A stretch of DNA of 63,763 bases, the filler included, from Bdellovibrionota bacterium (GTDB lineage Bacteria > Bdellovibrionota > Bdellovibrionia > Bdellovibrionales > JAEYZS01): the NCBI GenBank assembly GCA_963169515.1. It is 3 parts of 3 records of this genome, joined end to end, with 100 filler letters (N's around TTAATTAATTAA, not from the genome) between each part and the next. Parts side by side here need not be neighbours in the genome. Positions count along the whole stretch, not along the records: positions 26,326 to 55,877 come from CAUJEF010000094.1; 2 more parts are not named here. The stretch is one strand, 5' to 3'. The notes under the pieces are model-generated. The model was given only the letters and a program-made list of their open reading frames with translations. It ran no database searches and had not been told where the DNA came from. Every line of letters starts with the position of its first letter. The stretch's first letter is position 1. The position numbers and the translations under genes were made by a program. Below are positions 34,392 through 52,291 of the stretch, in pieces.

Positions 34392-35540
34392 CTATTTCCC
34401 GTTAATCTTGTCACTCATAGTTTTTAATTCGCGTTGAACATCATCAGGAATATCAGTGCCCGCCGAACCAGTAAATGAACTGGTGATAATGTCCTCATAT
34501 TTCAAAAAACATTTTTTTGCGATCTTAGAAGTGGGATATTTAATGACACATTCCTTTAAATAAAGTTCTGCAAGGGAATAAAAGAAGTTATTATTTAACT
34601 CGTGATCGCAGATGGCTAGGTAATAGAGTATCTCTGGCGTAATTTTTGTTATTGGATGGGTTGCCATGTAGTCATAAAGAACACCGGACACTCGCAAATA
34701 GGTCACAGAGCGAGGGCTTTCAGATTCTTGGAGCTTATCCCAAACATCCTTTTTCATCTGCTTTTCTATAAACTTAAGGATCTCTGAATCTGTGAGCTTT
34801 GTAACATCTACATCTTTTTCTTTCTTCCACTCGTTAAATAAAGCGATCCATGATTCTATATTTTTATGTAAATATTTAGGAATATTTTTATTTTTAAGAT
34901 CCTTTTCAAGTGCTTGTATTGCCACGGCAGGATCTCTTTTTATGCGCGCAAAAATTGCCACCTTCCTTTTTAAAGACGTTTCTAGTTTTTCCACTGGAAG
35001 TTTGTTTGTTGGAAAATTGTCTATCAATTCTGTGTACATTGGGAGTGCTTTGTCATAATTTCTTAAGACAAATCGAAGCTCTGCTTGGTCGTACTTTTCT
35101 TTAAAGTTATTTTGCCTGAAAAGATCATCGAAAGGCTGATTTGCTTTGGAAACTTGCGCGTGACAAGACATACAGATGGACAAGCTCGAGTTAACCATCC
35201 AGCGGGCGTAGCTCTTGTGACCAGAATTGAAAGCGTTCTCAGCATCAGCAAATTGCGTCGCCAATACCTCACCAGAAATTTTCATTATTGGATTTTTAAG
35301 TTCGTGCTGCTGTGTAGCCGTTTTCACAGACTGGGTTGTATCTTTGAGGAGCTGTTTGATCTCGGCCTCATGTTCTTTCTTTTTAAACTCGTCCTCTGAC
35401 AGGCTATATTTTGTTATTCGCGCAAGATTAGAAAAAATTCTATCCATTAGCCCCTGGACACTGGTCTTGCCACCTTCGATCTGTGCCCATAATATAACCG
35501 GAATTGTAGCGGTAATGACTCCTATTGCAAGGTGCCTCAT
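34392..35540 (-). CDS. Exported monoheme c-type cytochrome with TPR-like helical repeats (paralog B)
   Basis: ATG 35540 with AGGAG RBS, signal peptide, CMSCH; shares many motifs with 27502-28632. Confidence 0.72.
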   Translation of the reverse strand: MRHLAIGVITATIPVILWAQIEGGKTSVQGLMDRIFSNLARITKYSLSEDEFKKKEHEAEIKQLLKDTTQSVKTATQQHELKNPIMKISGEVLATQFADAENAFNSGHKSYARWMVNSSLSICMSCHAQVSKANQPFDDLFRQNNFKEKYDQAELRFVLRNYDKALPMYTELIDNFPTNKLPVEKLETSLKRKVAIFARIKRDPAVAIQALEKDLKNKNIPKYLHKNIESWIALFNEWKKEKDVDVTKLTDSEILKFIEKQMKKDVWDKLQESESPRSVTYLRVSGVLYDYMATHPITKITPEILYYLAICDHELNNNFFYSLAELYLKECVIKYPTSKIAKKCFLKYEDIITSSFTGSAGTDIPDDVQRELKTMSDKINGK

Positions 35541-35580
35541 GATAACTCCTTTGTTGTTCATTAATACAGTAACCATCAGA

Positions 35581-35596
35581 GGCAACGATGATGCCA
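35581..35596 (-). promoter_or_regulatory. Sigma54 -24/-12 promoter of monoheme paralog B
   Basis: Minus strand TGGCATCATCGTTGCC (GG-N10-GC). Confidence 0.7.
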
Positions 35597-35833
35597 TCGC
35601 CGATGCTTTCTATATTTTAAACAGCGCGAGTTATGTGACAGGTCGGCTTGGAAGTTTGTCAATTTGTCTCATTACTGCATTAGATCCCACATATTCGTTT
35701 TCCCTTTGGCTCAAATATTGAAATCACATGCTAACAAATCATTTCTTCCGGGGTGTGCGTGGTTTCAGGGCAAGGTGCGGGACTAGCAATAGATGTCGCA
35801 AACACAGTTTTAGAATTAAGTAGACGGTGGTTA

Positions 35834-36565
35834 ATGGCTCGCGAGGCTGCCTTTAAAAAGATATTTTTAAAAAGCAAGCCAGAAAGTGAATTTTTAACAC
35901 AGCTTGGTTGCATCGAAGAAGACCAGTTCGAAGATTTTTTGAAGTCAATATTTCTTAACTCTAGAAATCTTGGGTTGAGCTACCAAAAAGCTAAAAGTTT
36001 AACATGGGAGAAAAATGACTTTGCAACATTTGCGGCAGAGTTGGGATCCCCTTGTCTAATGGGTGTTTGGAGGCAAAAGACATCGGCGCATATTCTTAGC
36101 CGTGATGGTTGCAGTGGTGGAACATCAATGGGACAGCGATATTGCCGCTATTGGCGTGAAGCCATAGATGGATTTGTCGTCGGAATCAGCGATGCGGTCG
36201 GTTTTGTCAGGAATAGCTCTGCCAATTTCGGTGATGATAAGTGTGTGGATGTATTTTTTGATGAAGAGTTAAGCCCAACTGACGCTATTTGGGAGAACCC
36301 CAATAAATGGGGTGCCCTGCCAAAAAATATAAAAGAGGACCTTGACCTAATCCAGATAAAATTCAGTGAGATGAAGGTAGACCTCAAGTTTTTAGGACTA
36401 TCTGAGGGAAATCTTTTATATAAATTGGAGCCTAAGGAAAACTTAACTTGTGGTTCTGCAGGGAATATTTACCGCACGTATCTTGAAAAATTAGTTAAAG
36501 AAAAGTTTCCACTTTATAATCTCAAAGATGCCAGTCCCGTGGCGGTTTACGGGGAGCGTGCGTAA
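35834..36565 (+). CDS. Cys-containing protein, V4R-like domain plus degenerate NifU-C-like domain; first gene of the oxidoreductase operon
   Basis: LSRDGC...YCRYWREAIDG...FGDDKCVDVF; C-terminal DLKFLGLSEGNLLYKL...TCGS...LEKLVKEKFP; coupled to the next gene (TAATG). Domain calls are by eye. Confidence 0.55.
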   Translation: MAREAAFKKIFLKSKPESEFLTQLGCIEEDQFEDFLKSIFLNSRNLGLSYQKAKSLTWEKNDFATFAAELGSPCLMGVWRQKTSAHILSRDGCSGGTSMGQRYCRYWREAIDGFVVGISDAVGFVRNSSANFGDDKCVDVFFDEELSPTDAIWENPNKWGALPKNIKEDLDLIQIKFSEMKVDLKFLGLSEGNLLYKLEPKENLTCGSAGNIYRTYLEKLVKEKFPLYNLKDASPVAVYGERA

Positions 36566-36885
36566 TGGTTGTTTCAAGGCGTAATTTCTTCAAAGCTATG
36601 ATCTCAATGGCAGAACAAAAAAAATCGGCTGATGTGGATCAAGACATTGTTATCTTAGGCCACTTAACTTCTTTTCCGGTTCATTCGTCCACAAGAATTG
36701 AGCTGCTGGATACAGACTTTCTAGTGGAATCTCTTCCCGAAGGCATTCGTCTTAAAGATCCATATACGAATAAGAATTTAAAGCTGTCTTTGGGTAGCAA
36801 CGGGTTTATTCAGGCGCATATAAATGAGTTTTGGCCGTCATCAGCTGTGTTATCAATACTTACGGGTGAAATATCCAACATATGA
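36565..36885 (+). CDS. Small protein with twin-arginine-like motif and Rieske-like scaffold lacking cluster ligands
   Basis: SRRNFFK; LGHLTSFPVHSSTRIEL..FLVESLPEGIRL; no Cys; its stop overlaps the alpha-subunit RBS. Confidence 0.5.
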   Translation: MVVSRRNFFKAMISMAEQKKSADVDQDIVILGHLTSFPVHSSTRIELLDTDFLVESLPEGIRLKDPYTNKNLKLSLGSNGFIQAHINEFWPSSAVLSILTGEISNI

Positions 36886-36895
36886 GGAGCTTTAT

Positions 36896-39800
36896 ATGTC
36901 AGATAAAAAAAACAAATTAAGCCGAAGGGCATTTTTGAAGGGGTCTGCTGCTGGAGCAACAATTTTAGCAAGCACGCAAGTTTTTTCTGGTCCTTTGAAA
37001 TACTTTAAACCAACTGTTATTGATAATCCATTAGCTCAGTATCCGAACAGAGACTGGGAAAAAGTGTACCGCGATATCTTCAAGACAGATGGTGAATATC
37101 ACTTTTTATGCGCTCCCAACGATACGCATAATTGCTTGCTTCGAGCATACACCAAAAATGGTGTTGCTTTACGGATTGGTCCATCATTTGGATACGGTAA
37201 GGCAAAGGACTTATATGGCAATCAGTCCTCACATCGCTGGGACCCTCGTATTTGTCAAAAAGGACTGGCGCTGGTTAGACGAGTTTATGGCGACAGGCGT
37301 GTGAAAGCTCCGATGGTTCGACGAGGATTTAAAGATTGGGTTGATGCGGGATTTCCTAGAAATGAAAAGACTGGAGAACCTGAATCTAAGTATTTTCAAC
37401 GTGGTAAAGATAAATGGCTTCGCGTTAGTTGGGATGAAATAAATAAAATAACGGCAAAGGCAGCCGAAAATATTGCAAAAACTTATAATGGAAAGCGTGG
37501 TGAAGAATATCTTCGTGCTCAAGGGTATGACGAAGAAATGGTCCGTGCGATGGAGGGTGCAGGGGTCCAAACTTTTAAATTGAGGGGAGGGATGGCTTTC
37601 CTCGGATCAACTAGATTATTTGGTTTGTATCGATTTGCAAATTTGTTAGCCCTTATGGACTCAAAAATTCGAAATGTCGGGCCAGATAAAGCAATTTCAG
37701 CTAGAGGATGGGATTCATACAGTTGGCACACTGATTTGCCACCGGGGCATCCTATGGTTACTGGCGCACAGACGAATGACTTTGATCTGTTTTCAACCGA
37801 GTACGCCAACCTGATTGTCCCTTGGGGCATGAACTGGATTACTACAAAGATGCCAGATTCGCACTGGATGACTGAAGCGAGACTAAAAGGTGCAAAGATT
37901 GCAGCCGTTACTGTTGAATACAGTGCAACAGCATCGAAGTGCGATGAAGTTGCCATTATTCGCCCTGGATCTGATCCGGCCTTTGCGCTTGGTTTGGCAC
38001 AGGTTATTATTAAGAAGAATCTACATGATAAAGATTGGATCTCTAAAAACACAGACCTGCCCTTTTTGATTCGTATGGATACTCTTCTGCCGCTTCGCCC
38101 TCAGGATGTAATCGAAGGGTACAAGGCTCCAGAATTATCGAGTATCAAATTTCTAAAAAAAGGGGAGAAGCTAGCTTATGGAAATAAAAAGCAACAATCG
38201 GCGCCAGAAAAAATGAGGGACGATTTTCAACCATATGTTATTTTTGATAAAAATGGACAATTGATCCCAGTAACGCGAGATGATTTTGGTCCTAATTTTG
38301 AAAAGCTAGGCGTTGCGCCAAAACTAAGCGCGAGTGCTTCGATTAGGTTGCTTAATGGAAAATTAGTGAAAGTTCGTTCAAGCTTTCATTTGATGGAAGA
38401 GTATTTAAATAAGAATTTCACGCCAGAAAAGACAAGCGCTATCACTGGATGTCCAGAAAATGGGATTATAAAGTATGCCGAAATGATCGCCGCTAATAAA
38501 GAAAAAACATTATTTGCGGTCGGCATGGGGCCGAACCAGTTTTTTAATGCCGATTTGAAAGATAGGGCGATATTTTTAGTGGCGGCACTGACCAGGAACG
38601 TGGGTTTTCCGGGAGGTAATGTTGGAAGTTATGCAGGTAACTATCGCGCGGCTATTATTGACGGGCAACCGGTCTATACCTTCGAGGATCCGTTTAATCT
38701 CAACCTGGATAGGGGTGGCAAACCAACGATAAAAAAATACCTACATTACGAATCCCTTCACTATTTCAATTACGGTCAAAGGCCGAATAAGCATGGGGAT
38801 AAAATGTTTACGGGAGCGGGCCATATGCCAACCCCAACGAAGTTCATGTGGAACAATAATTCCAATTCGACGATTGGAAATGTTAAGTGGCACTATGATG
38901 TCGTAATGAATACTTTGCCTAAAGTTGAGTTTATTGCATATTCTGATTGGTGGTGGACTGGGTCATGCGAATACGCAGACGTTGTTTATGCCGTCGATAG
39001 TTGGGCTGAAACGAAAGTACCTGATATGACAGGGTCCTGTACAAATCCATTTGTTCAAATATTCCCAGAAACTCCTTTACCAAGGATTTTTGATACCAAA
39101 TCAGATCTTGAAATCATTGCCGGTGTAGCAAGGGCCATTGGCGACCAGATCGGTGAGCCTAGGTTAAAAGATGGATTTAAGTTCGTTTGGGACGGAAATG
39201 TAGAAGAATATTTACAGCGCATTATAAATGCATCGGATTCGCTGAAAGGCTACAAATTTAAAGATCTCCACGATAAGGCCAAGCAAGGTATTCCTGCCCT
39301 TATGAATATGAGAACTTACCCTCGGGCATCTTCTTATGAGCAGGCCAAGGGTGAAGACCCATGGCACACGAAATCAGGACGATTGGAGTTTTATCGATTT
39401 GAGCCCGAATTTATAGAGCACGGAGAAAATTTAGTAGTTTACCGGGAACCGGTTGATTCTACTCACTATGAGCCCAATGTCATTTTAGCTGAAAAACACG
39501 AGGCAATACGGCCAACGAAACCGGAAGATTGGGGCTTTTCTTCAAAAGATCTTTCCAGTGAAACTCGGCAAGTTCGAAACATAGTTATGAGTGGTGATAA
39601 AGTATTAAAATCAAAACACCCGCTCAAGCTTAAGCTTCAATTCTCACATGTTTATCATACTCCTAAATATCGGCATGGGGCTCACTCAACTCCAATTGAT
39701 ACCGATTTCAGCTCTGTCTTTTTTGGACCATTTGGAGATGTCTATCGTCATGACAAAAGACTTCCTTTTGTCACTGAGGGCTATGTTGATATTAATCCGT

Positions 39801-40369
39801 TGGATGCCAAGGCTCTTGGAGTGGAAGATGGCGATTATGTTTATATCGATGCTGATCCAGAAGATAGGCCTTTTCGGGGTTGGAAAAAAGGAACCGAAGA
39901 ATATAAGATATCTCGCCTTCTTTTGAGGGCAAGATATTACCCAGGCACTCCTCGAGGAGTAGCCAGGACGTGGCACAATATGTATGGTGCCACTTTTGGA
40001 AGTGTAAAAGGTCATGAAACTCGCCCGGATGGCCTAGCAAAGTCTTCAGAAACAAACTATCAAGCCATGTATCGATACGGAAGCCATCAAAGTGCTACGA
40101 GGGCATGGCTGCGGCCGACTTTAGAGACAGAGACTTTAGTTCATAAAACTATGTTTGGGCAAGGCATGGATAAAGGCTTTGAGGCCGACATTCATTGTGT
40201 GATTGGGGCACCTCGGGAGGCCTTTGTCAAAGTAACAAAGGCTGAGCCGGGTGGGATAGGCGGCAAGGGTAAGTTTAGGCCGGCACAGCTGGGTTTTAGA
40301 CCAACTTATGAGAATAAAGCAATGAAGCAATATCTAAAAGGTGGCTTCATGAAAAAGAAAAAGTTTTAG
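36896..40369 (+). CDS. nxrA: Type II DMSO-reductase-family molybdoenzyme alpha subunit, periplasmic NXR/NAR-like (NxrA-like), 1157 aa
   Basis: GAGGAG RBS; Tat signal SRRAFLK; FS0 motif CAPNDTHNC...PRIC; Asp Mo-ligand motif SWHTDLPPGHP; TKMPDSHW, IRPGSD.A, TKSGRLEFY, PKYRHGAHS, VDINPLDAKALG.EDGD.V. Confidence 0.88.
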   Translation: MSDKKNKLSRRAFLKGSAAGATILASTQVFSGPLKYFKPTVIDNPLAQYPNRDWEKVYRDIFKTDGEYHFLCAPNDTHNCLLRAYTKNGVALRIGPSFGYGKAKDLYGNQSSHRWDPRICQKGLALVRRVYGDRRVKAPMVRRGFKDWVDAGFPRNEKTGEPESKYFQRGKDKWLRVSWDEINKITAKAAENIAKTYNGKRGEEYLRAQGYDEEMVRAMEGAGVQTFKLRGGMAFLGSTRLFGLYRFANLLALMDSKIRNVGPDKAISARGWDSYSWHTDLPPGHPMVTGAQTNDFDLFSTEYANLIVPWGMNWITTKMPDSHWMTEARLKGAKIAAVTVEYSATASKCDEVAIIRPGSDPAFALGLAQVIIKKNLHDKDWISKNTDLPFLIRMDTLLPLRPQDVIEGYKAPELSSIKFLKKGEKLAYGNKKQQSAPEKMRDDFQPYVIFDKNGQLIPVTRDDFGPNFEKLGVAPKLSASASIRLLNGKLVKVRSSFHLMEEYLNKNFTPEKTSAITGCPENGIIKYAEMIAANKEKTLFAVGMGPNQFFNADLKDRAIFLVAALTRNVGFPGGNVGSYAGNYRAAIIDGQPVYTFEDPFNLNLDRGGKPTIKKYLHYESLHYFNYGQRPNKHGDKMFTGAGHMPTPTKFMWNNNSNSTIGNVKWHYDVVMNTLPKVEFIAYSDWWWTGSCEYADVVYAVDSWAETKVPDMTGSCTNPFVQIFPETPLPRIFDTKSDLEIIAGVARAIGDQIGEPRLKDGFKFVWDGNVEEYLQRIINASDSLKGYKFKDLHDKAKQGIPALMNMRTYPRASSYEQAKGEDPWHTKSGRLEFYRFEPEFIEHGENLVVYREPVDSTHYEPNVILAEKHEAIRPTKPEDWGFSSKDLSSETRQVRNIVMSGDKVLKSKHPLKLKLQFSHVYHTPKYRHGAHSTPIDTDFSSVFFGPFGDVYRHDKRLPFVTEGYVDINPLDAKALGVEDGDYVYIDADPEDRPFRGWKKGTEEYKISRLLLRARYYPGTPRGVARTWHNMYGATFGSVKGHETRPDGLAKSSETNYQAMYRYGSHQSATRAWLRPTLETETLVHKTMFGQGMDKGFEADIHCVIGAPREAFVKVTKAEPGGIGGKGKFRPAQLGFRPTYENKAMKQYLKGGFMKKKKF

Positions 40370-40390
40370 ATCGAAAGCATCGGAGAAATT

Positions 40391-41521
40391 ATGGCAAAAG
40401 TAAAGAATTGGCAGATTAACAGAGAGATGGAGTACCCATACAGTGAGAGCAGGCCTAAAAAGCAGTGGGCTATCGTGTTTGATTTAAACAAGTGTATTGC
40501 GTGTCAGACTTGTACGCTAGCTTGTAAAACGACTTGGACTAGTGGCAAGGGTCAAGAGTACATGTTCTGGAATAATGTTGAGACCAAACCATACGGTTCA
40601 TATCCTCTAGCGTGGGACGTAAAAGTTTTGGAAAAGCTTGGGCACCAAGAATGGGAAAAGAAAATGCCTTACTATGGAAAAACTATCTTTGAAGCAGCTG
40701 AAATCCATGAGACAGCGGCCCATTTTTCTCCTGAAGATGAAGATTGGATGTATCCAAACCATGGTGAAGATGATTGTTCTGGCCAGGTTAATAGGGGTGA
40801 TTATATATCTTTTCAGCATGATAAATGGTTTTTTTATTTACCGCGAACCTGCGCGCATTGCACGTATCCCGCCTGTTTGGCGGCATGCCCAAGGAAGGCT
40901 ATTTACAAACGACAAGAGGATGGCGTTGTGCTTATTGATCAGTCCCGATGTAAGGGGTATGGCGAATGTGTGAAAGCATGTCCTTACAAAAAGTCGATGT
41001 ACAATGCCCACACACGAATTAGTGAGAAATGTATCGGTTGTTATCCGTTTGTAGAGCAAGGTTATCAACCTCGATGTGTAACAAATTGTATTGGTAAAAT
41101 TAGAATAATGGGTTTTATAAATCCCCCGTGGAAGGTTCGAAACAATAATCCAGTAGACTATCTGGTTCACAAAACTGGATTGGCTTTGCCATATTACCCA
41201 CAATTGGGTCTTGAACCCAATATCTACTATATCCCTCCTATACACGCAGACAGAGAATATTTGGCTCAAATGTTTGGACCGAATGTTGACAACGCAATTG
41301 AAGCATATAGAAAACTAAAAGATGATCCAGTTGCCCAAGGTTTACTTGTTCTTATGGGCAGCACAGACCGAATTATCCATAATTTCGATGTTAAAAACGG
41401 TGTTGCATACGGTTACGATGAAAAGGGAGATGAGATTGTTCACGTTCCTATCATCGAACAAAGGTACGTACGTCCTGCCTTTGATGAAAAAATTGGTACG
41501 TCAAGAAATAACACTCCCTGA
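40391..41521 (+). CDS. nxrB: Fe-S beta subunit (NxrB/NarH-like)
   Basis: NWQINREMEYPY; CIACQTCTLAC, CAHCTYPACLAACP, CKGYGECVKACP (3Fe-4S type), CIGC...CVTNC; WNNVETKP. Confidence 0.9.
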   Translation: MAKVKNWQINREMEYPYSESRPKKQWAIVFDLNKCIACQTCTLACKTTWTSGKGQEYMFWNNVETKPYGSYPLAWDVKVLEKLGHQEWEKKMPYYGKTIFEAAEIHETAAHFSPEDEDWMYPNHGEDDCSGQVNRGDYISFQHDKWFFYLPRTCAHCTYPACLAACPRKAIYKRQEDGVVLIDQSRCKGYGECVKACPYKKSMYNAHTRISEKCIGCYPFVEQGYQPRCVTNCIGKIRIMGFINPPWKVRNNNPVDYLVHKTGLALPYYPQLGLEPNIYYIPPIHADREYLAQMFGPNVDNAIEAYRKLKDDPVAQGLLVLMGSTDRIIHNFDVKNGVAYGYDEKGDEIVHVPIIEQRYVRPAFDEKIGTSRNNTP

Positions 41522-41528
41522 GGTTTTT

Positions 41529-42377
41529 ATGAAATCAAAATATTTAATTTTATTATTGTTAGTGGTCAGTGCCAACTGTTGGGCAGAAATTGAAGTGAAA
41601 AAGGTTTTGGGGGATATATCAATAGATTACAAAAGCGATTCTATTTGGAAAAAGGCTAATGCAGATCAAGCAATTAGCCTTATGGGGCAGCCCATGGTTG
41701 TACCCAAACCTAAGAATACCGAAACATCTTCAATAAATGTTTCCGCCGTTCATGATGGAAAATGGATCGTTTTTAGACTCAAATGGAAAGATAGCGAAGT
41801 CAGTGAGGCAGAGAAATTAGCTACATTTTCGGATGCGGTTGCTTTGCAATTTCCAATTAAGAATAACGAGATGCCGCCGATGATTATGATGGGTGGAAAA
41901 GATGATCCTGTTCATTTATTTCATTGGAAGTATCAATATCAGGTGGATGCGAAAAAAGGGAAAAAAACAATTGATCAAATTTATCCGAACATGACCATAG
42001 ATATGTATCCAATGGACTTTAAAGAGAAGGGAAACTTTAAAGAAGCCTCCAGGGAGCAGAAGGATTCATTTGTCGGAGGAACTGCTGCGGGGAATCCGCA
42101 ATCCTTCCCTAAGTCAGGAGTTGATGAGATTTTTGCTGAGGGTTTTGGTTCTTCTGCAGTTTCAGAGTCCTGCCAAGCTCAAGGATTTGGTGAGTGGAAA
42201 AATGGCGAATGGACCGTATTTATTGCGAGGCCCCTTTACTACAAAAATGGGTCTAAACTTGCTGTAGGAGGAAAAAGTCATGTTGCATTTGCCGTGTGGC
42301 AGGGGGGTAAGAAAGAAATTGGCGCAATTAAATCTTTAACGATGATCTGGACGCCGCTTAATATTTTGGAGAAATAA
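41529..42377 (+). CDS. nxrC: Heme b gamma subunit (ethylbenzene dehydrogenase gamma / NxrC-like)
   Basis: Sec signal MKSKYLILLLLVVSANCWA; V.AVHDGKWIVFRLKWKD, FSDAVALQFP, IMMGG...VHLFHWK, AEGFG, W.V...RPL, AFAVWQG. Confidence 0.82.
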   Translation: MKSKYLILLLLVVSANCWAEIEVKKVLGDISIDYKSDSIWKKANADQAISLMGQPMVVPKPKNTETSSINVSAVHDGKWIVFRLKWKDSEVSEAEKLATFSDAVALQFPIKNNEMPPMIMMGGKDDPVHLFHWKYQYQVDAKKGKKTIDQIYPNMTIDMYPMDFKEKGNFKEASREQKDSFVGGTAAGNPQSFPKSGVDEIFAEGFGSSAVSESCQAQGFGEWKNGEWTVFIARPLYYKNGSKLAVGGKSHVAFAVWQGGKKEIGAIKSLTMIWTPLNILEK

Positions 42378-42378
42378 T

Positions 42379-43065
42379 ATGAAAAATTTAATTGTTCAAA
42401 CAACGCCTGGTCCGTTTGTGCTTGCATCAGTTTTGACGGGCTATCCTGATTCTGACTTTCAAAAATCTTTATCTGAATTACTAGAGGATGAGTCTATTTG
42501 TCTTCCGCAAAAATTGAGCGAACAACTCAGGGGAATGGTTGCAGATCCTACGCAAATAGATGATTTGCGATCCGATTATATTTGTATTTTCGATCAATCA
42601 AAGTCGCTTAATCCGCTTTACGAAACAGAGTACGGGCGAGAGCGTGCTATGTTTAAGGCTAATGAATTGTCCGATATTTCTGGATTTTATAGAGCTTTTG
42701 GTTTCGAAATGAATCAAGATGGTGATCGCGACATGGTAGACCATATATCGGTTGAGTTGGAATTTTATAGCCTCCTTCTGATGAAACTACTGTACCTTAA
42801 AGAAATTGATGATCAAAATGGGTTTGAAATTGTTAATGATGGAATGAAAAAATTTATGGATTCTCATCTTGGTAGGTTTGTACCTGCAATATTAGAGCGA
42901 GAGGGAATTAAGTCTTCGGATATTTACATGAATATTTTTAAGTGGGTCAATCAGGTCGTTTCTGAGGAATGCCGCCGAATAGGAGTTGTCCCGGAAATAG
43001 CCAACTGGTTCAGTTCGCAGGTTGCGGATGAAAACGTGTGTTGTGGTGGGACCGTTGTGAAATGA
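42379..43065 (+). CDS. TorD/DmsD-family maturation chaperone
   Basis: LRSDYICIF, PLYETEY, ISGFYRAFG, DHISVELEF, FMDSHLGRF; C-terminal CCGG. Confidence 0.88.
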   Translation: MKNLIVQTTPGPFVLASVLTGYPDSDFQKSLSELLEDESICLPQKLSEQLRGMVADPTQIDDLRSDYICIFDQSKSLNPLYETEYGRERAMFKANELSDISGFYRAFGFEMNQDGDRDMVDHISVELEFYSLLLMKLLYLKEIDDQNGFEIVNDGMKKFMDSHLGRFVPAILEREGIKSSDIYMNIFKWVNQVVSEECRRIGVVPEIANWFSSQVADENVCCGGTVVK

Positions 43066-43349
43066 AACTTCGTAAACCAAGACCGGCAAAGCCAGGTGAG
43101 ATAAATTATCCGATGCTAGACCGGTTTACTTTCGCTCATTTGGCGATCGGGTGTGTGTATTCTTTTTTGGGGTTTGATTTTATTTTAGTGGGTTTGCTTG
43201 CCATTGGCTGGGAGCTGATTGAAAACCCGATTAAGGCCAATATGCCATGGATGTTTCCACATGGTACATCAGATACATTACAAAATGCTATTGGCGACGT
43301 TCTAGCGGTTCTGGTAGGCTGGGGGGCGACACAGTATTTAAGATATTGA
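43062..43349 (+). CDS. Small membrane protein with H...WE..EN...D..N..D motif, coupled to the chaperone gene
   Basis: ATGA overlap with the chaperone stop; about three hydrophobic segments. Confidence 0.65.
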   Translation: MKLRKPRPAKPGEINYPMLDRFTFAHLAIGCVYSFLGFDFILVGLLAIGWELIENPIKANMPWMFPHGTSDTLQNAIGDVLAVLVGWGATQYLRY

Positions 43350-43429
43350 TGAATGGTGATCCTCTATGCTCGAAACTGCAGCGCATTGAGGAGAGCCAAC
43401 GATCCGCCCAGAGAATAGACTTTACGGTA

Positions 43430-45724: not shown

Positions 45725-45774
45725 GTAGGACTTTTTCTTTTGCTTTGCTTTTGCATAGGCGAACCCTTGACAAT

Positions 45775-45851
<77 letters not shown>

Positions 45852-45871: not shown

Positions 45872-46738
45872 TTACCTTAATTGATATCTCTGCTCAACTT
45901 TAAAATCGTCCTTATTGGGGGATACTGTGGCCATATCGCAATACGGATCATGCTCAAAGTACAAGTACCATTTATTTTGAGCAGCTTCAGTCAGTAAGGC
46001 GCGCTTTTCCTCTATGATGGTGAGAGGTTCCAGATCATACCCCATTATCCAGGCAAGCCGCACGTGAGTGCTCGTAGGGATTACGTCACCACAATAAACA
46101 ACAGTCGTTTTGCCATCTGAAATCTTGACCATCTGATGCGCTTTCGTGTGTCCAAAACTTAATACTGTAGAAACAAATGGTACTACATTTTCAGTTGGAC
46201 CGTTAAGAAGGGTCAAAACCCCCGCATCCAGCAGGGGTTGAAAATTTGATGGCAAATAGCTTGCACGCTCTCTGATATTTGGTTCCTGTGCTGTTTTCAA
46301 ATTCTCTTTTTGAACGTAGTATTTTGCGTTTTGAAAGGTAGGAACAATTTTTCCATCGCGAACGCAGGTCGCGCCGCCTGCATGATCAAAATGCAGGTGG
46401 GTAAGCACCACGTCCGTAACGTCCTCTGGCTTAACCCCATATTTTTTTAATGAATCAATTAAGCGGTTGTCGTGGACCCCATACATTTTATTAAAATTTG
46501 TTCCCAATTTTTCACCATATTTTTCAATGAAATCCCCGCCATTACCTGTGTCGATTAAGACAATGCGATCTTTGCTTTTAAGCAGCAGCGCACGAGCTTC
46601 CATTTTGATTTGGTTTTGTTCATTCGTGGGATTTGTCTTTTCCCATAACACTTTTGGTACGGTTCCAAACATGGCTCCACCGTCCAATCCAAATTCACCG
46701 GTTGGCACCGACTTTAATTCGTAAGGTCCTATTTTCAT
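45872..46738 (-). CDS. MBL-fold hydrolase (YtnP/lactonase-like)
   Basis: LDGGAMFG.VPK.LW, THLHFDHAGG, GHT..H, GDVIP, FEHDP; ATG 46738 preferred. Confidence 0.88.
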   Translation of the reverse strand: MKIGPYELKSVPTGEFGLDGGAMFGTVPKVLWEKTNPTNEQNQIKMEARALLLKSKDRIVLIDTGNGGDFIEKYGEKLGTNFNKMYGVHDNRLIDSLKKYGVKPEDVTDVVLTHLHFDHAGGATCVRDGKIVPTFQNAKYYVQKENLKTAQEPNIRERASYLPSNFQPLLDAGVLTLLNGPTENVVPFVSTVLSFGHTKAHQMVKISDGKTTVVYCGDVIPTSTHVRLAWIMGYDLEPLTIIEEKRALLTEAAQNKWYLYFEHDPYCDMATVSPNKDDFKVEQRYQLR

Positions 46739-46855
46739 TGTCTTTTCGGTCAGGTTTTCGATCACCGGATCTCCTTGAAATTCATTGCCCACAGTACCAG
46801 AAAGGTAGTAAAAGGTCACGTGACTTCAGGAACTTAAAAAATGAGGGAGCTCCGA

Positions 46856-47524
46856 ATGACAGACTTGGAAAAAGAAATCATATTCAGTCCGAACGAGATT
46901 TTAGCCCGTGTTAGGCCCTCCCCACATCAAAACAATGGCAAAACAGATGAAGAAAAAATCAAGAAAATTAAAGAACACTTCGAAGGCATTTTAACAACTC
47001 TTGGAATGGATTTGAATAATGACAGTATCAGCAAGACTCCTGAACACATGGCTAAAATGTATGTGAACGAAATTTTCAGTGGCCTCAAAACAGAAAACTT
47101 TCCTAAGGTCACCGTAATCGAAAATGAAATGGAATACGATGAAATGATCGTCGTAAAAGACATCAGCGTCGTATCTGTCTGTGAACATCATTTTTCAACA
47201 ATTTGCGGCCGTGCCCATGTGGCATACATTCCTAATAAAAGGGTTGTTGGGTTATCTAAAATTAACCGCATCGTAAAATACTTTTGTCGTCGGCCACAGG
47301 TTCAAGAACGCCTTACAAAACAAATCGCAGACTGTTTGGAATATGTCTTAGAAACAAAAGATGTTGCAGTCATTATAGACGCGAAACACTATTGCGTAAT
47401 CAGTCGTGGGGTCGAAGATGTGAACAGCACAACGCTGACATCGGACCTGCGTGGCGGTTTCCGAGACGATGCGCGAACACGTACTGAATTTATGAATCAT
47501 TTAAAAATGCCAGGGTTGGGATAA
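46856..47524 (+). CDS. folE: GTP cyclohydrolase I
   Basis: CEHHF, HVAYIP, GLSKINR, RRPQVQERLT, HYCVISRGV. Confidence 0.95.
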   Translation: MTDLEKEIIFSPNEILARVRPSPHQNNGKTDEEKIKKIKEHFEGILTTLGMDLNNDSISKTPEHMAKMYVNEIFSGLKTENFPKVTVIENEMEYDEMIVVKDISVVSVCEHHFSTICGRAHVAYIPNKRVVGLSKINRIVKYFCRRPQVQERLTKQIADCLEYVLETKDVAVIIDAKHYCVISRGVEDVNSTTLTSDLRGGFRDDARTRTEFMNHLKMPGLG

Positions 47525-48483
47525 TGAACAGACGCCCGCGAAGAAACAGAAAGTCGGAAGTCATCCGGGACATGGTTGCAGAGACAGAGGTTTCTGCAAA
47601 GAATTTGATTTTTCCTTTATTTATTTTGGACGGCACCGAAAAGAACATTGAAATTTCATCCATGCCTGGAATCTTTCGAAAAAGTCCGGACGAAGTTTAT
47701 CGTGAAATTGAATTGTGCATGGAATTGGGGCTGAAAAGCTTTGCCTTATTCCCGGTTGTTGAGGAGTCTTTGAAAGATCCGTTTGCGAAAGTTTCTTACG
47801 ATAAAAGTTTTTTCTATCTAAAAGCGATCCGTGAAATTAAACAAAAATTCCCGGAATCTGTCATAATGACTGACGTTGCGATGGACCCTTATAGTTCCCA
47901 TGGGCATGACGGAGTTTACAAAAACGGAAAAATTTTAAACGACGAAACATTGCCGATCTTGGGACATATGGCATTGGCGCAGGCAGAGGCAGGCGCTGAT
48001 ATCATCGGCCCGTCTGATATGATGGATGGACGCGTCGGTTTTCTGCGCCAGGCACTTGACGAAAATGGATATTCAGACGTTTCTATTATGGCATACACTG
48101 CCAAATACGCATCCAGTTTTTATGGACCCTTCCGCGAAGCTTTGGATTCTGCACCTAAATTTGGAAACAAGAAAACGTATCAAATGGATTTTCGAAATCA
48201 AAAAGAGGCCTTGGTTGAAGCCGAACTGGATATTGCAGAAGGCGCGGACATGATTATGGTAAAGCCCGCTTTGGCGTATCTTGATGTGATATCACAGCTG
48301 AAAAATACGTTTTCGGTCCCAATCGCAGCTTATAATGTTAGCGGTGAGTACGCGATGGTGAAGGCCTCTTCCGCGAAGGGTTGGATTGACGAGGAGCTTG
48401 CGGTTTTGGAGATGCTGACGGCGATACGTCGGGCTGGGGCGTCCCAGATACTGACGTATTTTGCAAAGCAGTTTCTGCTTTAA
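47524..48483 (+). CDS. hemB: Porphobilinogen synthase
   Basis: RPRRNR, HGHDG, PSDMMDGR, KYASSFYGPFREA, MVKPA, AYNVSGEY. Confidence 0.96.
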   Translation: MNRRPRRNRKSEVIRDMVAETEVSAKNLIFPLFILDGTEKNIEISSMPGIFRKSPDEVYREIELCMELGLKSFALFPVVEESLKDPFAKVSYDKSFFYLKAIREIKQKFPESVIMTDVAMDPYSSHGHDGVYKNGKILNDETLPILGHMALAQAEAGADIIGPSDMMDGRVGFLRQALDENGYSDVSIMAYTAKYASSFYGPFREALDSAPKFGNKKTYQMDFRNQKEALVEAELDIAEGADMIMVKPALAYLDVISQLKNTFSVPIAAYNVSGEYAMVKASSAKGWIDEELAVLEMLTAIRRAGASQILTYFAKQFLL

Positions 48484-48877
48484 CTTTTAAATTTCGATCC
48501 AGTTCCCATACCGTGTTTCCGGTCTTGCTATCAATCAAGTGATATTGAACCAAAAGATTTAAATACTCTTTGTCTTGCCAGTCGTCGACGCCGATTTGTA
48601 GTGTATATTCCCCATCGGTATGGGTACGTATTGGCGCTTTAACTTTTTCTAAAAGTGTTTTAGCGCTATCGCTCAGGGGAATGTATTCAATGGTTTTAAT
48701 GTTTTGCCATTCCTTTGGAATTTTCTGATAGAGCAAAAGCTTTTCAATATCTTGTTTCCACAAATAATAAATCATTCCGTTCTTATCTTTTGACCAAAAT
48801 GGAGCAAGCTCCCTGTACAGAAAGACAACGATCACAAGGCCGAACAAGAAAATAGTCAGGCCAAAAATACGTCCCAT
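48338..48877 (-). CDS. Membrane-anchored hypothetical protein
   Basis: N-terminal TM helix and GGGGG RBS; 3' end overlaps hemB antisense by 146 nt. Confidence 0.6.
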   Translation of the reverse strand: MGRIFGLTIFLFGLVIVVFLYRELAPFWSKDKNGMIYYLWKQDIEKLLLYQKIPKEWQNIKTIEYIPLSDSAKTLLEKVKAPIRTHTDGEYTLQIGVDDWQDKEYLNLLVQYHLIDSKTGNTVWELDRNLKVKAETALQNTSVSGTPQPDVSPSASPKPQAPRQSNPSRKRPSPSRTHR

Positions 48878-48891
48878 TGCTTTCCCCCCTG

Positions 48892-49596
48892 TTATTCCCC
48901 TAAATAGGCTTTGCGAACGTCGTCTGAAGCCATGAGTTCCTTTGCAGAACCTTTCAAGGCAACCCGTCCGACCTCAAGCACGATCCCTTTGTGAGCGATT
49001 TCTAACGCCTGCAGAGCATTTTGTTCGACAAGCAGAACGGTTTTGCCATCTTTATTGATTTTCACAATGATTTCAAAAATTTTCTCGATGATCTGTGGGG
49101 CTAATCCTAGCGATGGCTCATCAAGGAGTAACAGCTCCGGGTGGCCCATCAGTGCGCGTCCGATTGCCAGCATTTGCTGTTCGCCGCCGGATAAAGTTCC
49201 TGCATTTTGTGATCGCCGTTCTTTAAGCCTGGGAAATAGTGAAAAGACGTGTTCAATATCGTCGTTAAAGGTCGATTTGTCTTTGACGGACCAGGCGCCG
49301 AGGTCCAAGTTTTCTTCAACGGTGAGATTAAGAAATATTCCGCGTCCTTCCGGGGCCTGGCAGATACCCCTTTGAACGATTTTATCGGCGGGGATGTTTA
49401 CAATCGATCGGTCTTTGAAAAGAATTTTTCCCGCTATTGGCGTGTTCAAGCCGGAAATCGTTCGCAAGATGGTTGTTTTGCCGGCGCCATTGGCGCCGAT
49501 GAGGGTGACAATTTCCCCTTTGGCAACGTCAAAGCTCACATTTTGCAGTGCTTGGATTGCGCCATAATTTACAGAAACATTTTCAACCTTTAACAT
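48892..49596 (-). CDS. livF: Branched-chain amino acid ABC ATPase
   Basis: GANGAGKTT, PEGRGIF, LSGGEQQMLAIGRALM, LDEPSLGLAP. Confidence 0.93.
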   Translation of the reverse strand: MLKVENVSVNYGAIQALQNVSFDVAKGEIVTLIGANGAGKTTILRTISGLNTPIAGKILFKDRSIVNIPADKIVQRGICQAPEGRGIFLNLTVEENLDLGAWSVKDKSTFNDDIEHVFSLFPRLKERRSQNAGTLSGGEQQMLAIGRALMGHPELLLLDEPSLGLAPQIIEKIFEIIVKINKDGKTVLLVEQNALQALEIAHKGIVLEVGRVALKGSAKELMASDDVRKAYLGE

Positions 49597-49605
49597 GCAT
49601 AATTC

Positions 49606-50388
49606 CTAATGTGTTGTTGCGCTTTTCCCCAGGTAGGCTTCGATAACCCGTGGGTTTTGTTGGATCTCGCTTGGTGTGCCTTCGGCGATTGTGACCCCGT
49701 AATCGAGCACAGTAATGCGCTCACAAATTCCCATAACAAGCTTCATATCATGCTCAATTAGCAAAGTTGTAATTCCCAGCTTGGATTTCACCATACGAAT
49801 GGTGCTCATCAGATCTACGGTTTCCTTGGTATTCATGCCAGCGGCGGGTTCATCCAACAAAAGAATTTTTGCTCCTGTTGCCATTGCCCGGGCAATTTCC
49901 AATCGGCGCTGGGCCCCATAGGGGAGATTTCTTGCTAGGTTTTGTTGCTTGTCTTCCAAGCCAAAAATTTTTAACAGTTCGTATCCGCGCCTGTTTTTTT
50001 CATTTTCATTTTCAATAAACTTTGCAGTCTTAAAAATGGAATGGAATATCGAGACACGCGGAAAATTGGGGTCCTGGTCAATTGCAACTTTTAAATTATC
50101 TAAAACTGTAAGGTCTTTAAACAAACGAATGTTTTGAAATGTTCGGGCCATTCCATAATGGGTGATCTTACAAGGGGCAAGGCCGGTTACTAAATTGCCA
50201 AAGGCCTCGATTGCTCCGGTGGTGGGTTTGTATACACCTGTTAGCATATTAAAGATGGTTGTTTTGCCAGCGCCATTGGGGCCGATCAACCCATAGATCA
50301 CACCTTCAGGAAGGTCGAGACAAAAATCTGTTACAGCTTTCAGGCCGCCAAATTGAATTCCCATTTTCTTGACACATAATACGTTCAC
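49606..50388 (-). CDS. livG: Branched-chain amino acid ABC ATPase
   Basis: FGGLKAV, GPNGAGKTT, RTFQNIRLF, LPYGAQRRLEIARA, IEHDM. Confidence 0.93.
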   Translation of the reverse strand: MNVLCVKKMGIQFGGLKAVTDFCLDLPEGVIYGLIGPNGAGKTTIFNMLTGVYKPTTGAIEAFGNLVTGLAPCKITHYGMARTFQNIRLFKDLTVLDNLKVAIDQDPNFPRVSIFHSIFKTAKFIENENEKNRRGYELLKIFGLEDKQQNLARNLPYGAQRRLEIARAMATGAKILLLDEPAAGMNTKETVDLMSTIRMVKSKLGITTLLIEHDMKLVMGICERITVLDYGVTIAEGTPSEIQQNPRVIEAYLGKSATTH

Positions 50389-51392
50389 TTTTTCTTCCCG
50401 GGTAAAAAGTCAAAAATTTCTTTAGTTCCAAACAGCCCGTTTGGTCGTGTGAGCATCAATACAATTAGCAAAAATGAGTAAATAATCATGCGAAGATCCA
50501 CCTGGGTAATTTCTTGTAAGGGGCGGAGCGCTTCACGAAGAGTTGTTAAAAAGACCGCTGCGACAATAGATCCAGAGATGCTGCCCATGCCGCCTAACAC
50601 TACCATGATAATAATCTCAAAAGAGCGATTGAAGTCAAACGTCACGGGGTTGATAAACTGCAACTGGTGCGCAAAAAGGCCGCCCGCCACACCGGCAAAG
50701 AAAGCTCCGATGACGAAAGCGCGTACTTTGGCGCCCGTGATATTCACGCCCATGGCCTCGGCTGCAATTTCATCCTCGCGAACACTTAGGAACGATCTGC
50801 CCTGTGGTGATTTGATAAGCCGCTCAACAACAAAGACTGTGAGCACGACGAACGAAAAGATCCAGCCGAAATTAGAAAGCGGTGGAATGCCCGGCATTCC
50901 ACGTGATCCGCCAACGGCGTCGACATTTAAAAATATAACACGGATAATTTCGCCAAAACCAAGGGTCACGATTGCCAGATAGTCACCTTTCAGTCTTAGT
51001 GAAGGAAGACCCACCAGATAGCCGGCAGCACACGAAACCAATCCACCCAAGATTAACGATCCAACAAAAATAGACTGTCCAATGAGCGGGTTTGAAAACA
51101 AGTCTACGTGATGGGCTTGAAAGTAAGTCGTGATAAAAGCTGATGCATAGGCACCAACCGACATAAACCCCGCATGCCCCATTGAGAACTGTCCCGTGAA
51201 CCCATTTACGAGATTCAGGCTAACGGCCAATATAATATTAATTCCGGAATATAAAATGATGTTGAGATAGTAGGGATTAATCTGGTCCGTTAGGAAAATG
51301 CTAATAAGCCAAATAAAAATGCCTGTGACAAGCCAGATCCAATTAGAGTGAAACTTTCCAAGTCTGTTAGAAATCTGGATCGGTCCACTCAT
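50385..51392 (-). CDS. livM: Branched-chain amino acid ABC permease
   Basis: GQFSMGHAGF, LRLKGDYLAIVTLGFGEI, VREDEIAA. Confidence 0.92.
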   Translation of the reverse strand: MSGPIQISNRLGKFHSNWIWLVTGIFIWLISIFLTDQINPYYLNIILYSGINIILAVSLNLVNGFTGQFSMGHAGFMSVGAYASAFITTYFQAHHVDLFSNPLIGQSIFVGSLILGGLVSCAAGYLVGLPSLRLKGDYLAIVTLGFGEIIRVIFLNVDAVGGSRGMPGIPPLSNFGWIFSFVVLTVFVVERLIKSPQGRSFLSVREDEIAAEAMGVNITGAKVRAFVIGAFFAGVAGGLFAHQLQFINPVTFDFNRSFEIIIMVVLGGMGSISGSIVAAVFLTTLREALRPLQEITQVDLRMIIYSFLLIVLMLTRPNGLFGTKEIFDFLPGKKK

Positions 51393-52291
51393 ACTTTTTC
51401 AGTCCTATTGGTTCCAAAAAGACCGGTAGGTTTCACGAGTAGAATGAAAATTAACAGGGCAAATGCCAAAGCGTCTCTGTATGTCGATGCCCAATATCCG
51501 ACTAGGAATGTTTCTGCCATTCCCAACGTAAGCGCGCCAACGACGGCACCAGCGATGTTTCCGATTCCACCCAGTACCGCAGCAACGAATGCTTTTAATC
51601 CTGGCATAACGCCCATCATAGGCTCAATGCGAGGATAGATGATTCCGACGAGCACACCGCCAGCACCAGCAAGTGCTGATCCCAGCATGAATGTAAGCGA
51701 AATAACTTTGTTTGTTGGTATTCCCATCAGAGAGGCAAGGTCGTGATTAAAGCTCACAGCTCTCATCGCACGACCAACACGCGTTCGAAAAACAATATAT
51801 TGCAGAAATCCCATCAGAATAAGAGAGATAATAAGCACGATAACCTGAAGTGGGTTAATCTTAATTTCTCCAATAGAAAGGTCTGTCTGAGGAATGTAAA
51901 GCTCTGGAAAAAACTTTGGGTCTGATCCAAAAATAAGCTGCCCCGAAAACTCTAAAAGAAGCGAAACACCCACCGCTGTAATTAACAAGTTGATTCGCGG
52001 TGCTTTTCTCAGTGGTCTATATGCGAATCGTTCAATAATATATCCCACACTCGCACACATCACCATGGCGAAGATCAGTACCAGGATTAAATTTGTAAGC
52101 GACGGTTTATCAGTAAAATGAAACCATTTGGCGCTATAGTAGCCGACAAATGCCCCCAGCATATAAACGTCGCCATGGGCGAAATTAATCAATTGCAGTA
52201 CGCCAAACACCATCGTATAGCCAATAGCGATCAGCGCATATATGCTACCAAGACTGATTCCGTTGATGACGTACTGGAAGAACTCAACCAT
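51389..52291 (-). CDS. livH: Branched-chain amino acid ABC permease
   Basis: GSIYALIAIGYTMVFG..INFAHG, KAFVAAVLGGIG. Confidence 0.92.
   Translation of the reverse strand: MVEFFQYVINGISLGSIYALIAIGYTMVFGVLQLINFAHGDVYMLGAFVGYYSAKWFHFTDKPSLTNLILVLIFAMVMCASVGYIIERFAYRPLRKAPRINLLITAVGVSLLLEFSGQLIFGSDPKFFPELYIPQTDLSIGEIKINPLQVIVLIISLILMGFLQYIVFRTRVGRAMRAVSFNHDLASLMGIPTNKVISLTFMLGSALAGAGGVLVGIIYPRIEPMMGVMPGLKAFVAAVLGGIGNIAGAVVGALTLGMAETFLVGYWASTYRDALAFALLIFILLVKPTGLFGTNRTEKV

Follow-up and report, generated by a model that had tools for sequence, protein, structure and literature searches.

A predicted soluble periplasmic nitrate/nitrite oxidoreductase module in a Bdellovibrionales genome and its proposed role in nitrate respiration

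The operon described here, from a wastewater-dwelling relative of Bdellovibrio, itself a predator, encodes a predicted soluble periplasmic nitrate/nitrite oxidoreductase. On the strength of its sequence and genomic context, we propose that it acts mainly as a respiratory nitrate reductase at low oxygen, fed by alternative complex III (ACIII), a reading to which we give a probability of about 0.65. The window, the whole stretch of 63,763 nucleotides that was analysed, consists of three joined contigs, the operon's own being C94 only (26326-55877). The enzyme class is already known and the operon of the host genome (G000) is intact; what has been worked out here is a fold lead for gene 1, the ligand-less Rieske fold of gene 2 and a stop codon in the canonical narG of G000.

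Operon organisation and subunits

34392..35597, minus strand: divergent gene, N-terminal hydrophobic stretch, one CxxCH
35753..36565, plus strand: gene 1, accessory protein, predicted V4R/H-NOX/Bet3-like N-domain and NifU-C-like C-domain
36565..36885, plus strand: gene 2, 106 aa, SRRxFF twin-arginine-like motif, Rieske fold
36896..40369, plus strand: alpha, Mo-bis-PGD catalytic subunit, 1157 aa, Tat signal
40391..41521, plus strand: beta, four Fe-S clusters, no signal peptide (TIGR03478)
41529..42377, plus strand: gamma, soluble, Sec-type signal, predicted heme b (EB_dh/TIGR03477)
42379..43065, plus strand: delta, TorD/NarJ-family chaperone (PF02613, TIGR03482)
43062..43349, plus strand: ORF7, small membrane protein, tightly packed, outside the conserved module
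45872..54938, no strand given: host block (MBL hydrolase, folE, hemB, small gene, livFGMHK, MIDAS adhesin), tying the contig to its family

The features of a type II DMSO reductase are all present: an Asp-ligated Mo-bis-PGD alpha subunit with FS0, the beta clusters, a gamma subunit with predicted heme b and a private chaperone. The alpha subunit carries the twin-arginine motif SRRAFLK, an FS0 site of the 3Cys/Asp type (C72-x3-D76-x3-C80...C120), the conserved substrate-facing N75, the Mo ligand D280 (aligned to Asp275 of Kuenenia) and the motif Y-4x-D-11x-QT, which bears out the Tat-exported catalytic subunit with a C-x3-D motif of the original prediction. The 15 cluster cysteines of beta fit three [4Fe-4S] and one [3Fe-4S], in line with the predicted four-cluster subunit, and the protein scores 386 bits against Kuenenia 7b04_A. 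The only hydrophobic stretch of gamma, by hydropathy, is its N-terminus, and its predicted heme ligands M121/K268 align to Met155/Lys305 of Kuenenia (E-values of 4.6e-23 for 7b04_C and 6.7e-16 for EbdC), so that a soluble heme-b subunit, as first proposed, is upheld. The same applies to the TorD chaperone, which matches both family models and is found in 67/79 related loci, and to the lack of NarK, NarI and Mo-cofactor genes nearby, since no narK, narI or moa was detected among the 29 ORFs of the contig that were scanned.

The seven-gene operon originally described is indeed tightly packed, but its seventh member did not stand: the conserved module comprises six genes across the 79 related loci compared, and ORF7, which has no family match, occurs in none of them. 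Gene 1 had been given a start at 35834; the true start lies about 25 codons earlier, as the frame is open from a GTG at 35753 and a conserved Arg column precedes the ATG, the exact position being uncertain within 35753-35765. Gene 1 stands directly upstream in 68/79 related loci, three of the 11 misses being without upstream DNA, and its C98, C117, C128 and C161 are invariant among 50 sequences. No Pfam match and no signal peptide were found. Its structure model (pLDDT 93) gives VIA Z scores of 7.2 for Bet3, 6.5 for the DmpR V4R domain, 7.1 for CnfU and 6.7 for rice NifU-C; Foldseek E-values are at least 1.5e-3, consistent over many V4R-fold matches, and the atlas lead is V4R/MetOD1 at 0.80. 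As all Z scores are below 8, the putative V4R-like plus NifU-like fold is to be taken as a lead only.

Gene 2 was detected by HMM in 26/79 related loci, and its closest structure is a Kuenenia Rieske protein (9rk4, Z 11.4, rmsd 1.5 Å over 70 residues). It was rejected as a [2Fe-2S] Rieske protein: the fold fits, but there is no conserved Cys or His among 18 aligned members, the cluster-binding subdomain and its ligands being absent. Gene 2 has no hydrophobic h-region, and no Rieske motif was found in the ORFs shorter than 260 aa across the 79 loci. The divergent CxxCH gene, a possible candidate for a local cytochrome, lies beside the module in 0/79 related loci.

The operon is native to its host

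The operon is genuine and belongs to its Bdellovibrionales genome, for which completeness is 96.5% and contamination 0.02%; the sequencing runs come from wastewater, biofilm and sludge. The MBL-folE-hemB block is syntenic in 4/4 same-family loci examined and in one same-order locus, and the MIDAS gene adjoins it in 3/4 of those same-family loci; this flank and the low contamination support the assignment of host and flanking genes. The Bdellovibrionota-style genes that had been noticed on the contig hold up as regards the vWA/MIDAS lipoprotein (53829) and the start of the FQNC lipoprotein (55838), both on the operon's contig. A chimeric or mis-binned contig, which would make the host assignment wrong, might be suspected from the many Bacteroidota among the best global HemB matches (68-71% identity) and from the flanking genes, none of which is conserved beside the module in relatives; this reading, hardly credible now, is largely refuted by the contamination value and synteny, by the tetranucleotide composition of the operon, whose distance ranks at the 77th percentile among 226 genome windows, by the labels of the nearest alpha relatives (mostly Bdellovibrionota) and by read coverage, which extends over 30/30 bins in three runs from three studies with three single-letter differences, contigs in those runs crossing both module edges.

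Phylogenetic placement

The alpha subunit groups (100/100) with haloarchaeal, Inmirania, Magnetominusculus and Gaiellaceae proteins, and the group is sister to two anammox-like proxies, anchored separately, which make up the Nitrospira/anammox side of trees that took in no Ca. Nitrotoga NxrA. The phylogeny called for by the original prediction accordingly returned a periplasmic NXR/NAR-like protein, away from ClrA and NarG; neither a grouping with oxyanion or ethylbenzene enzymes nor foreign flanks nor a chimera, which it had named as grounds for giving the idea up, was found. Judged by sequence, alpha belongs to the sister clade of the Nitrospira/anammox NXRs, which corresponds, by description, to the known Nitrotoga-type group. 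This clade has already been described with 581 members counted (PMC12823411), the Nitrotoga-type group being termed 'NxrA2' in the review file of that paper. Monophyly with anammox-type NxrA (NxrA1) was rejected in a one-clade test with two proxies (p-AU 1e-108). A narrow-sense Ca. Nitrotoga NXR was also rejected, for the alpha motif ends in QT where the pattern Y-4x-D-11x-QM has QM; among 288 proteins matching the motif, the last residue is T in 283 and M in none. The motif CAPNDTHNC and an all-Cys first beta motif, put forward earlier as Nitrotoga markers, fail as such: the former also occurs in an anammox-like protein, and the latter is seen in Kuenenia NxrB as CIACQTCTMAC.

Distribution and respiratory context

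The module is horizontally spread or mobile and common in the phylum, occurring in 24/400 Bdellovibrionota genomes (~6%) and in 1/6 same-family genomes. It usually travels with Mo-cofactor genes, moeA standing beside it in 26/79 loci and moaA being found in 0/5 same-family non-carriers. Elsewhere in G000 are TatC, Moco biosynthesis genes, a caa3 oxidase, NirK, a NO-reductase-like oxidase and, on C154/C49, ACIII genes, so that the genome-wide search suggested at the outset recovered Moco, tat and ACIII alike. The ACIII NrfD-type subunit was present in 5/5 carriers tested, and no bc1 cytochrome b was found in G000.

Carriers usually show no respiratory nitrate reductase besides the module enzyme. 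The nitrate-reductase reading draws on the scarcity of NarG (2/26 carriers) and NapA (0/26), on the in-frame TAA stop in the G000 narG (C27) and on the absence of any NarK above cut-off in that genome. It further draws on RuBisCO, found in 0/26 carriers (positive controls scored in 5/14), and on nirK, present in 16/24 carriers against 63/376 non-carriers, a count that leaves out G000 and in which related genomes are not independent. Genes for nirK, nirS, qNor, nosZ/D, nnrS or ric lie near the module in 21/79 related loci, and an FNR-type box lies within 330 bp upstream in 11/65 loci against 10/623 control windows, the controls being coding DNA and several positive loci close kin. ACIII, TatC and the habitat point the same way. 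ATP citrate lyase (rTCA) scored in 0/26 carriers, as in no control genome either; nosZ was found in 5/26 carriers and nrfA in 3/26. Upstream of the G000 operon itself there is no FNR box (at most one mismatch), an observation that runs against the nitrate-reductase reading. On direction nirK is uninformative, being present in Nitrotoga and almost all nitrite oxidisers.

Proposed mechanism

We propose that the chaperone would load Mo-bis-PGD, that alpha and beta would leave by Tat, and that gamma would leave by Sec and carry a heme b of high potential. Substrates taken from prey could then supply electrons that pass from quinol through ACIII and a periplasmic cytochrome c to the gamma heme, FS4 to FS0 and Mo. 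Nitrate would be reduced to nitrite outside the inner membrane, which would make NarK unnecessary, and NirK with the NO-reductase candidate could continue to N2O. More speculatively, gene 1, with its four cysteines and NifU-like domain, may serve in Fe-S loading or redox/NO sensing, and gene 2 may be the relic of a Rieske/cytochrome b partner.

Alternative functions

The original prediction allowed for nitrate respiration or for energy from nitrite oxidation; the former is better supported, and the latter received no positive support, given the RuBisCO result, the denitrification neighbours and the FNR boxes of relatives. A heterotrophic predator might nevertheless pass electrons from periplasmic nitrite through cytochrome c to caa3 as a maintenance supplement between prey, with no CO2 fixation. 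The Nitrotoga-like architecture (soluble, Tat alpha, Sec gamma, ABCD order), the caa3 oxidase and ACIII, the missing FNR box at the G000 operon and the co-occurrence of module enzyme and canonical NarG in G000, G199 and locus L067 speak for it. Nitrotoga, too, relies on gamma heme, cytochrome c, caa3 and ACIII, and does so in the oxidising direction, and clade members might oxidise nitrite given high-potential cytochromes (Kitzinger et al, PMC6050957). Besides the three lines already given, the QT ending, the single copy against two or three in Nitrotoga and the interrupted G000 narG oppose it, and we regard nitrite oxidation in vivo as unlikely; should the narG stop be an assembly error, a second nitrate reductase would free the module enzyme for another role. 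It is an equally doubtful hypothesis that predatory Bdellovibrionota run a soluble NXR both ways, with aerobic nitrite oxidation for maintenance between prey and anoxic nitrate reduction, the V4R-NifU protein being a metal/NO-responsive maturation factor.

A non-growth redox valve, sending surplus electrons to nitrate, or the clearance of nitrite from the prey periplasm, in either case without anoxic predation, would suit the patchy distribution in the family and the presence of nnrS and ric, genes of NO stress, close to the module in relatives. Periplasmic nitrate reduction, furthermore, need not add a coupling site. For a minor valve, a whole Moco pathway travelling along would be expensive, and the module co-occurs with nosZ and qNor islands, all of which makes this role improbable.

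Another oxyanion (chlorate, perchlorate, selenate) or EbdA-type hydroxylation is very improbable: gamma is of EbdC type, the top-scoring NCBIfam models are those for type II DMSO reductases in general and nitrate reductases often reduce chlorate, but PcrA and EbdA (172 and 131 bits; NarG at most 122) score five times lower than Kuenenia NxrA (7b04_B, 889.7), Asn75 is conserved, grouping with ClrA is rejected (p-AU 1e-4) and chlorite dismutase was found in 0/5 genomes (G000 and four other carriers). Chlorate, perchlorate, selenate and ethylbenzene enzymes were rejected as the identity of alpha on the ClrA and chlorite dismutase results, PcrA and EbdA being compared by score alone and SerA left out.

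Implications

In about 6% of Bdellovibrionota genomes the enzyme comes as a transferable package that brings its Moco pathway along. Should it work as a nitrate reductase, it would explain how these bacteria might survive or hunt without oxygen in sludge and biofilms, and would add a first step of denitrification that narG and napA models overlook (alpha scores 138 against a cut-off of 1084, and 22 against 931). The literature already cites anoxic predation of B. bacteriovorus that depends on nitrate. If it oxidises nitrite, heterotrophic predators would do so non-autotrophically; apart from Nitrotoga, no cultured clade member had been tested for nitrite oxidation at the time of that study (Kitzinger et al, PMC6050957). 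A protein record labelled B. bacteriovorus (WP_374000201.1, P0359, on a 3.77-Mb contig) carries the enzyme, and this carrier, a closed genome, could give a tractable system for reaction direction in the clade if the strain is available in culture.

Comparison with known systems

The module resembles Ca. Nitrotoga NxrABCD (PMC6050957; 10.1101/317552) in ABCD order, a Tat alpha of ~1160 aa, an unsignalled beta with Cys45, a soluble Sec-exported gamma, a chaperone and the sister position to anammox-like proteins. It differs in the end of the Mo-site motif, compared via the published description of Nitrotoga, in gamma length (282 aa against 371-372), in two extra upstream genes, in lacking the downstream P-loop NTPase, and in a heterotrophic or predatory host. 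The best solved relative for all three subunits is the Kuenenia stuttgartiensis NXR-ABC (PDB 7B04; PMC8387239), a bidirectional enzyme which shares the FS0 Asn/Asp, the Asp Mo ligand and the Met/Lys heme. It belongs to a different clade (alpha scores 890 bits, where two anammox-like proteins reach 1590-1620) and has WHGDQAPG where the present enzyme has WHTDLPPG; no Kuenenia-type NXR-T or tubule partner was seen in the module. The Hydrogenobacter thermophilus NAR and the putative Thermogutta and Methanoperedens enzymes (PMC6050957, PMC10732223), likened by their published descriptions, fall in the same broad periplasmic NXR/NAR group and have nitrate-reducing hosts. According to PMC6050957, the Hydrogenobacter enzyme is the clade's characterised heterotroph-type member and a NAR, which counts for nitrate reduction; it is membrane-bound, whereas the present module has no membrane subunit, only the ligand-less Rieske relic. 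Cytoplasmic NarGHJI (E. coli, Paracoccus, the C27 copy of G000) is also a type II DMSO reductase acting on the nitrate/nitrite couple, but with a His-ligated FS0, no Tat signal, a NarI quinol site and a need for NarK, and NarG forms a far branch in both trees.

Operon content and accessory genes

The operon, carried by contig C94 (positions 26326-55877 of the window of three joined contigs), is real and native to its host, and belongs to a known but barely tested clade. The predicted subunits were all recovered: a Tat-exported Mo alpha subunit of 1157 aa (SRRAFLK, C72-x3-D76-x3-C80...C120, N75, D280), whose residues match Asn70, Asp71 and Asp275 as described for the structure from Kuenenia (PMC8387239); a four-cluster Fe-S beta subunit with 15 cluster cysteines; a soluble heme-b gamma subunit with a single, N-terminal hydrophobic stretch and putative heme ligands M121 and K268, aligned to those of Kuenenia; and a delta subunit matching the TorD-type chaperone profile. 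The seven-gene reading stands for six genes, which recur across the 79 related loci (alpha 79, beta 71, gamma 67, delta 67, gene 1 68, gene 2 26 by HMM and 14 by tblastn), but not for ORF7, found in 0/79. The start of gene 1, originally placed at 35834, lies about 25 codons earlier. A promoter and terminator scan remained at chance level (20 found, 23.4 expected). Identical contigs from the RNA run X16, which has depth in 8/30 bins, holds 0.14 of the operon words and may contain DNA, fall on alpha (four pieces), gamma (one) and the next gene (one).

The model of gene 1 (pLDDT 93, 50-row alignment) matches V4R/H-NOX/Bet3 folds at residues 24-168 and NifU C-terminal domains at residues 185-262; with Z 6.5-7.2, these predicted folds are suggestive only. 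Four of its cysteines are invariant. Gene 2 (pLDDT 80) adopts a predicted Rieske fold, with Z 11.4 to Kuenenia kuste4569, without the cluster ligands. Since Haloferax pNar keeps a true Rieske protein and cytochrome b upstream of narG, it is plausible by analogy that gene 2 is a relic of such a partner.

Direction of the reaction

Between nitrate respiration and nitrite oxidation, which the original prediction had left side by side, we favour nitrate respiration as the function of the enzyme, with a probability of about 0.65. In the simplest wiring, electrons would pass from quinol through alternative complex III (ACIII) and cytochrome c to the gamma heme, and onward along the Fe-S wire to Mo and nitrate. 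The genome-wide check returned both TatC and ACIII, and the host genome also encodes caa3, NirK and a heme-copper enzyme lacking the active-site Tyr. The Mo cofactor (Moco) genes moa/moe/mob, absent from the window, were located behind a canonical narGHJI.

Loci of the host genome related to nitrogen oxide metabolism
L083:11468-20000 (contig C27): narGHJI, then moaA/moaCB/moeA/mobA/moeB; second, canonical operon
L086:11323-14092 (contig C79): nirK fused to cytochrome c, then two genes, one with an FGE-sulfatase domain, the next SCO-like
L089:1433-4738 (contig C99): heme-copper oxidase subunit I without active-site Tyr, H226-x3-N230, accompanied by a subunit II (CuA plus cytochrome c) and an SCO-like gene

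Judged from its residues, the heme-copper oxidase is a candidate sNOR-type NO reductase, the Asn at N230 being what we take to be the sNOR mark. According to PMC11214002, the active-site Tyr is missing from NORs. The C27 narG contains one in-frame TAA within the conserved GGG-x-NHYVGQEK stretch, and a protein cluster look-up returned no full-length narG from the same species. No NarK exceeded the cut-off in the host genome; contig C27 ends just upstream of narGHJI, so narK could lie beyond. Searches of this genome also found no bc1 cytochrome b, Cld, FNT transporter or nrfA, and no nosZ, though the nosZ model matched in five other carriers.

Among 26 carriers (25 from the phylum sample including the host, plus genome G005), NarG occurs in 2, nirK in 18, nosZ in 5 and nrfA in 3, with no RuBisCO, no NapA and no match to an ATP citrate lyase model that had no working control. 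Present in 80/401 genomes of the phylum, nirK is found in 16/24 carriers versus 63/376 non-carriers, a contrast inflated by kinship, and it is carried by nitrite oxidisers as well. In 21/79 loci the module has denitrification or NO-stress genes in its neighbourhood, as labelled from one representative per cluster. FNR-type boxes occur upstream of 11/65 loci versus 10/623 coding windows, and none lies upstream of the window operon.

The same parts could run from nitrite through cytochrome c to caa3, and nitrite oxidation as an energy supplement is an unlikely reading that still deserves weight. A role as redox valve or in detoxification is more doubtful. A substrate other than nitrate or nitrite is very improbable; against the PDB, alpha scores 890 bits with Kuenenia NxrA, 172 with PcrA, 131 with EbdA and at most 122 with NarG.

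Host assignment and contig integrity

The host genome (2.38 Mb) is 96.46% complete and 0.02% contaminated. Among the flanking genes, the MBL-folE-hemB block is syntenic in 4/4 same-family loci examined, with a MIDAS adhesin beside it in 3/4. The tetranucleotide distance of the operon is ordinary (77th percentile of 226 windows). Read coverage, which the original prediction had proposed to check, extends over 30/30 bins of 34400-54300 in three DNA runs from three studies, with 3 single-letter differences. The left module edge is bridged by a contig of run X7, and the delta-ORF7 and ORF7-next gene junctions by contigs of run X4, whose study also contains possible source runs. A 41,358-bp contig is listed for each of the identical proteins, namely alpha, beta, kinase, HemB, LivK and MIDAS. 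At least half of the operon words occur in nine runs, six of which are not marked as possible sources and come from biofilm, wastewater and sludge in four studies. That the contig is chimeric or mis-binned is barely credible. Against the host assignment, global HemB matches are often to Bacteroidota, which makes HemB alone a poor taxonomic marker here, and the host was assigned by synteny instead.

The hemB gene (47524-48483) is 68-71% identical to Bacteroidota and 68-69% to same-family copies, an equal closeness that suggests an old transfer into the family. An AbiEii-like nucleotidyltransferase gene (45102-45851) adjoins tRNA-Arg(TCT), and the pair may delimit, on the right, an integrated island that holds the module. 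The FNNC/FQNC lipoprotein motif is found in 21 ORFs of the host genome, many with Pro/Thr-rich linkers, and the lipoproteins are expanded on contigs C62, C63, C79, C84, C90, C125 and C152.

Distribution and horizontal transfer

At E 1e-100, 2557 of the 8000 alpha candidates scored pass. The enzyme occurs in 24/400 sampled genomes of the phylum, spread over many families and including the closed single-contig genome G196, and in 1/6 same-family genomes; a protein labelled Bdellovibrio bacteriovorus (WP_374000201.1) is 72% identical and lies on a 3.77-Mb contig. The closest alpha (89-90% identical; L094, G251:C9) belongs to a genome of another order and the same-family copy reaches only 74%, which points to recent transfer. 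No host flanking gene is shared beside the module in the 79 related loci, and both observations indicate that the module moves horizontally. In relatives, Moco genes lie 3' of the module (moeA 26/79, moaC 24/79), often accompanied by a molybdate transporter, TauE or tatA; moaA was found in 0/5 same-family non-carriers. In a MAG labelled Turneriella (L067:82-12528), the periplasmic operon stands back to back with narGH, which is 89-94% identical to the C27 copy. The two nitrate reductase kits seem to circulate in one gene pool that spans phyla. The coding sequence for alpha is broken over two frames in carrier L095 (G381:C8:77663-81065) and, near the N-terminus, on a Natronococcus occultus plasmid (L099:6651-10201).

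Significance

What makes the finding valuable is a kit found phylum-wide, two accessory folds, an interrupted narG in the same genome and a possible culturable test organism. Outside subscription journals and bioRxiv supplements, a literature search returned no paper on this enzyme in Bdellovibrionota; it is undescribed in the available text of PMC13200544, PMC9944714, PMC11327836, PMC8494671 and 10.1101/2024.04.27.591411, and a term search of PMC11656739 for nitrate, nitrite and molybdenum gave no match. The preprint 10.64898/2026.07.03.736386 cites anoxic predation by HD100 that depends on nitrate and, in its available text, screens nitrite reductases only.

Comparison with known enzymes

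A FastTree of 60 rows places the window alpha in a fully supported 28-row subclade with Bdellovibrionota, Myxococcota, Sericytochromatia, Fibrobacteria and others; among its 31 named loci, L026, L062 and L076 were left out, having no called ORF >1000 aa, and the L067 row is its NarG. In a 17-row IQ-TREE, which uses the L067 periplasmic enzyme, alpha joins proteins of haloarchaea, Inmirania, Magnetominusculus and Gaiellaceae in a group with 100/100 support, to which two anammox/Nitrospira proxies (1590 and 1620 bits to Kuenenia) are sister. Grouping with these proxies (p-AU 1e-108) or with ClrA (p-AU 1e-4) was ruled out in this tree. The Nitrotoga-type assignment was upheld in part: the sister position is that described for the Nitrotoga clade (PMC6050957; 10.1101/317552), in trees that hold no Nitrotoga sequence, but Nitrotoga NxrA has a QM motif at the Mo site that the window alpha lacks. 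CAPNDTHNC and the all-Cys beta motif, proposed as Nitrotoga marks, also occur in anammox-type proteins and do not point to Nitrotoga. Nitrotoga NxrA was absent from the 50% representatives and from a search seeded with the Natronococcus homologue; motif scans of metagenome contigs gave 0 matches and then 2, the latter attributed to chance because neither has an ORF >=150 aa. The likeness between our at least 582 alpha relatives and the 581 Nitrotoga-clade sequences counted in PMC12823411 was taken as coincidence. The enzyme class is already known and widespread, and Planctomycetota MAGs carry NXR-like genes with or without NarG, their direction being left open (PMC10732223). SWHTDLxPG holds as a clade mark among the proteins compared, WHTDLPPG versus WHGDQAPG separating this clade from the anammox type.
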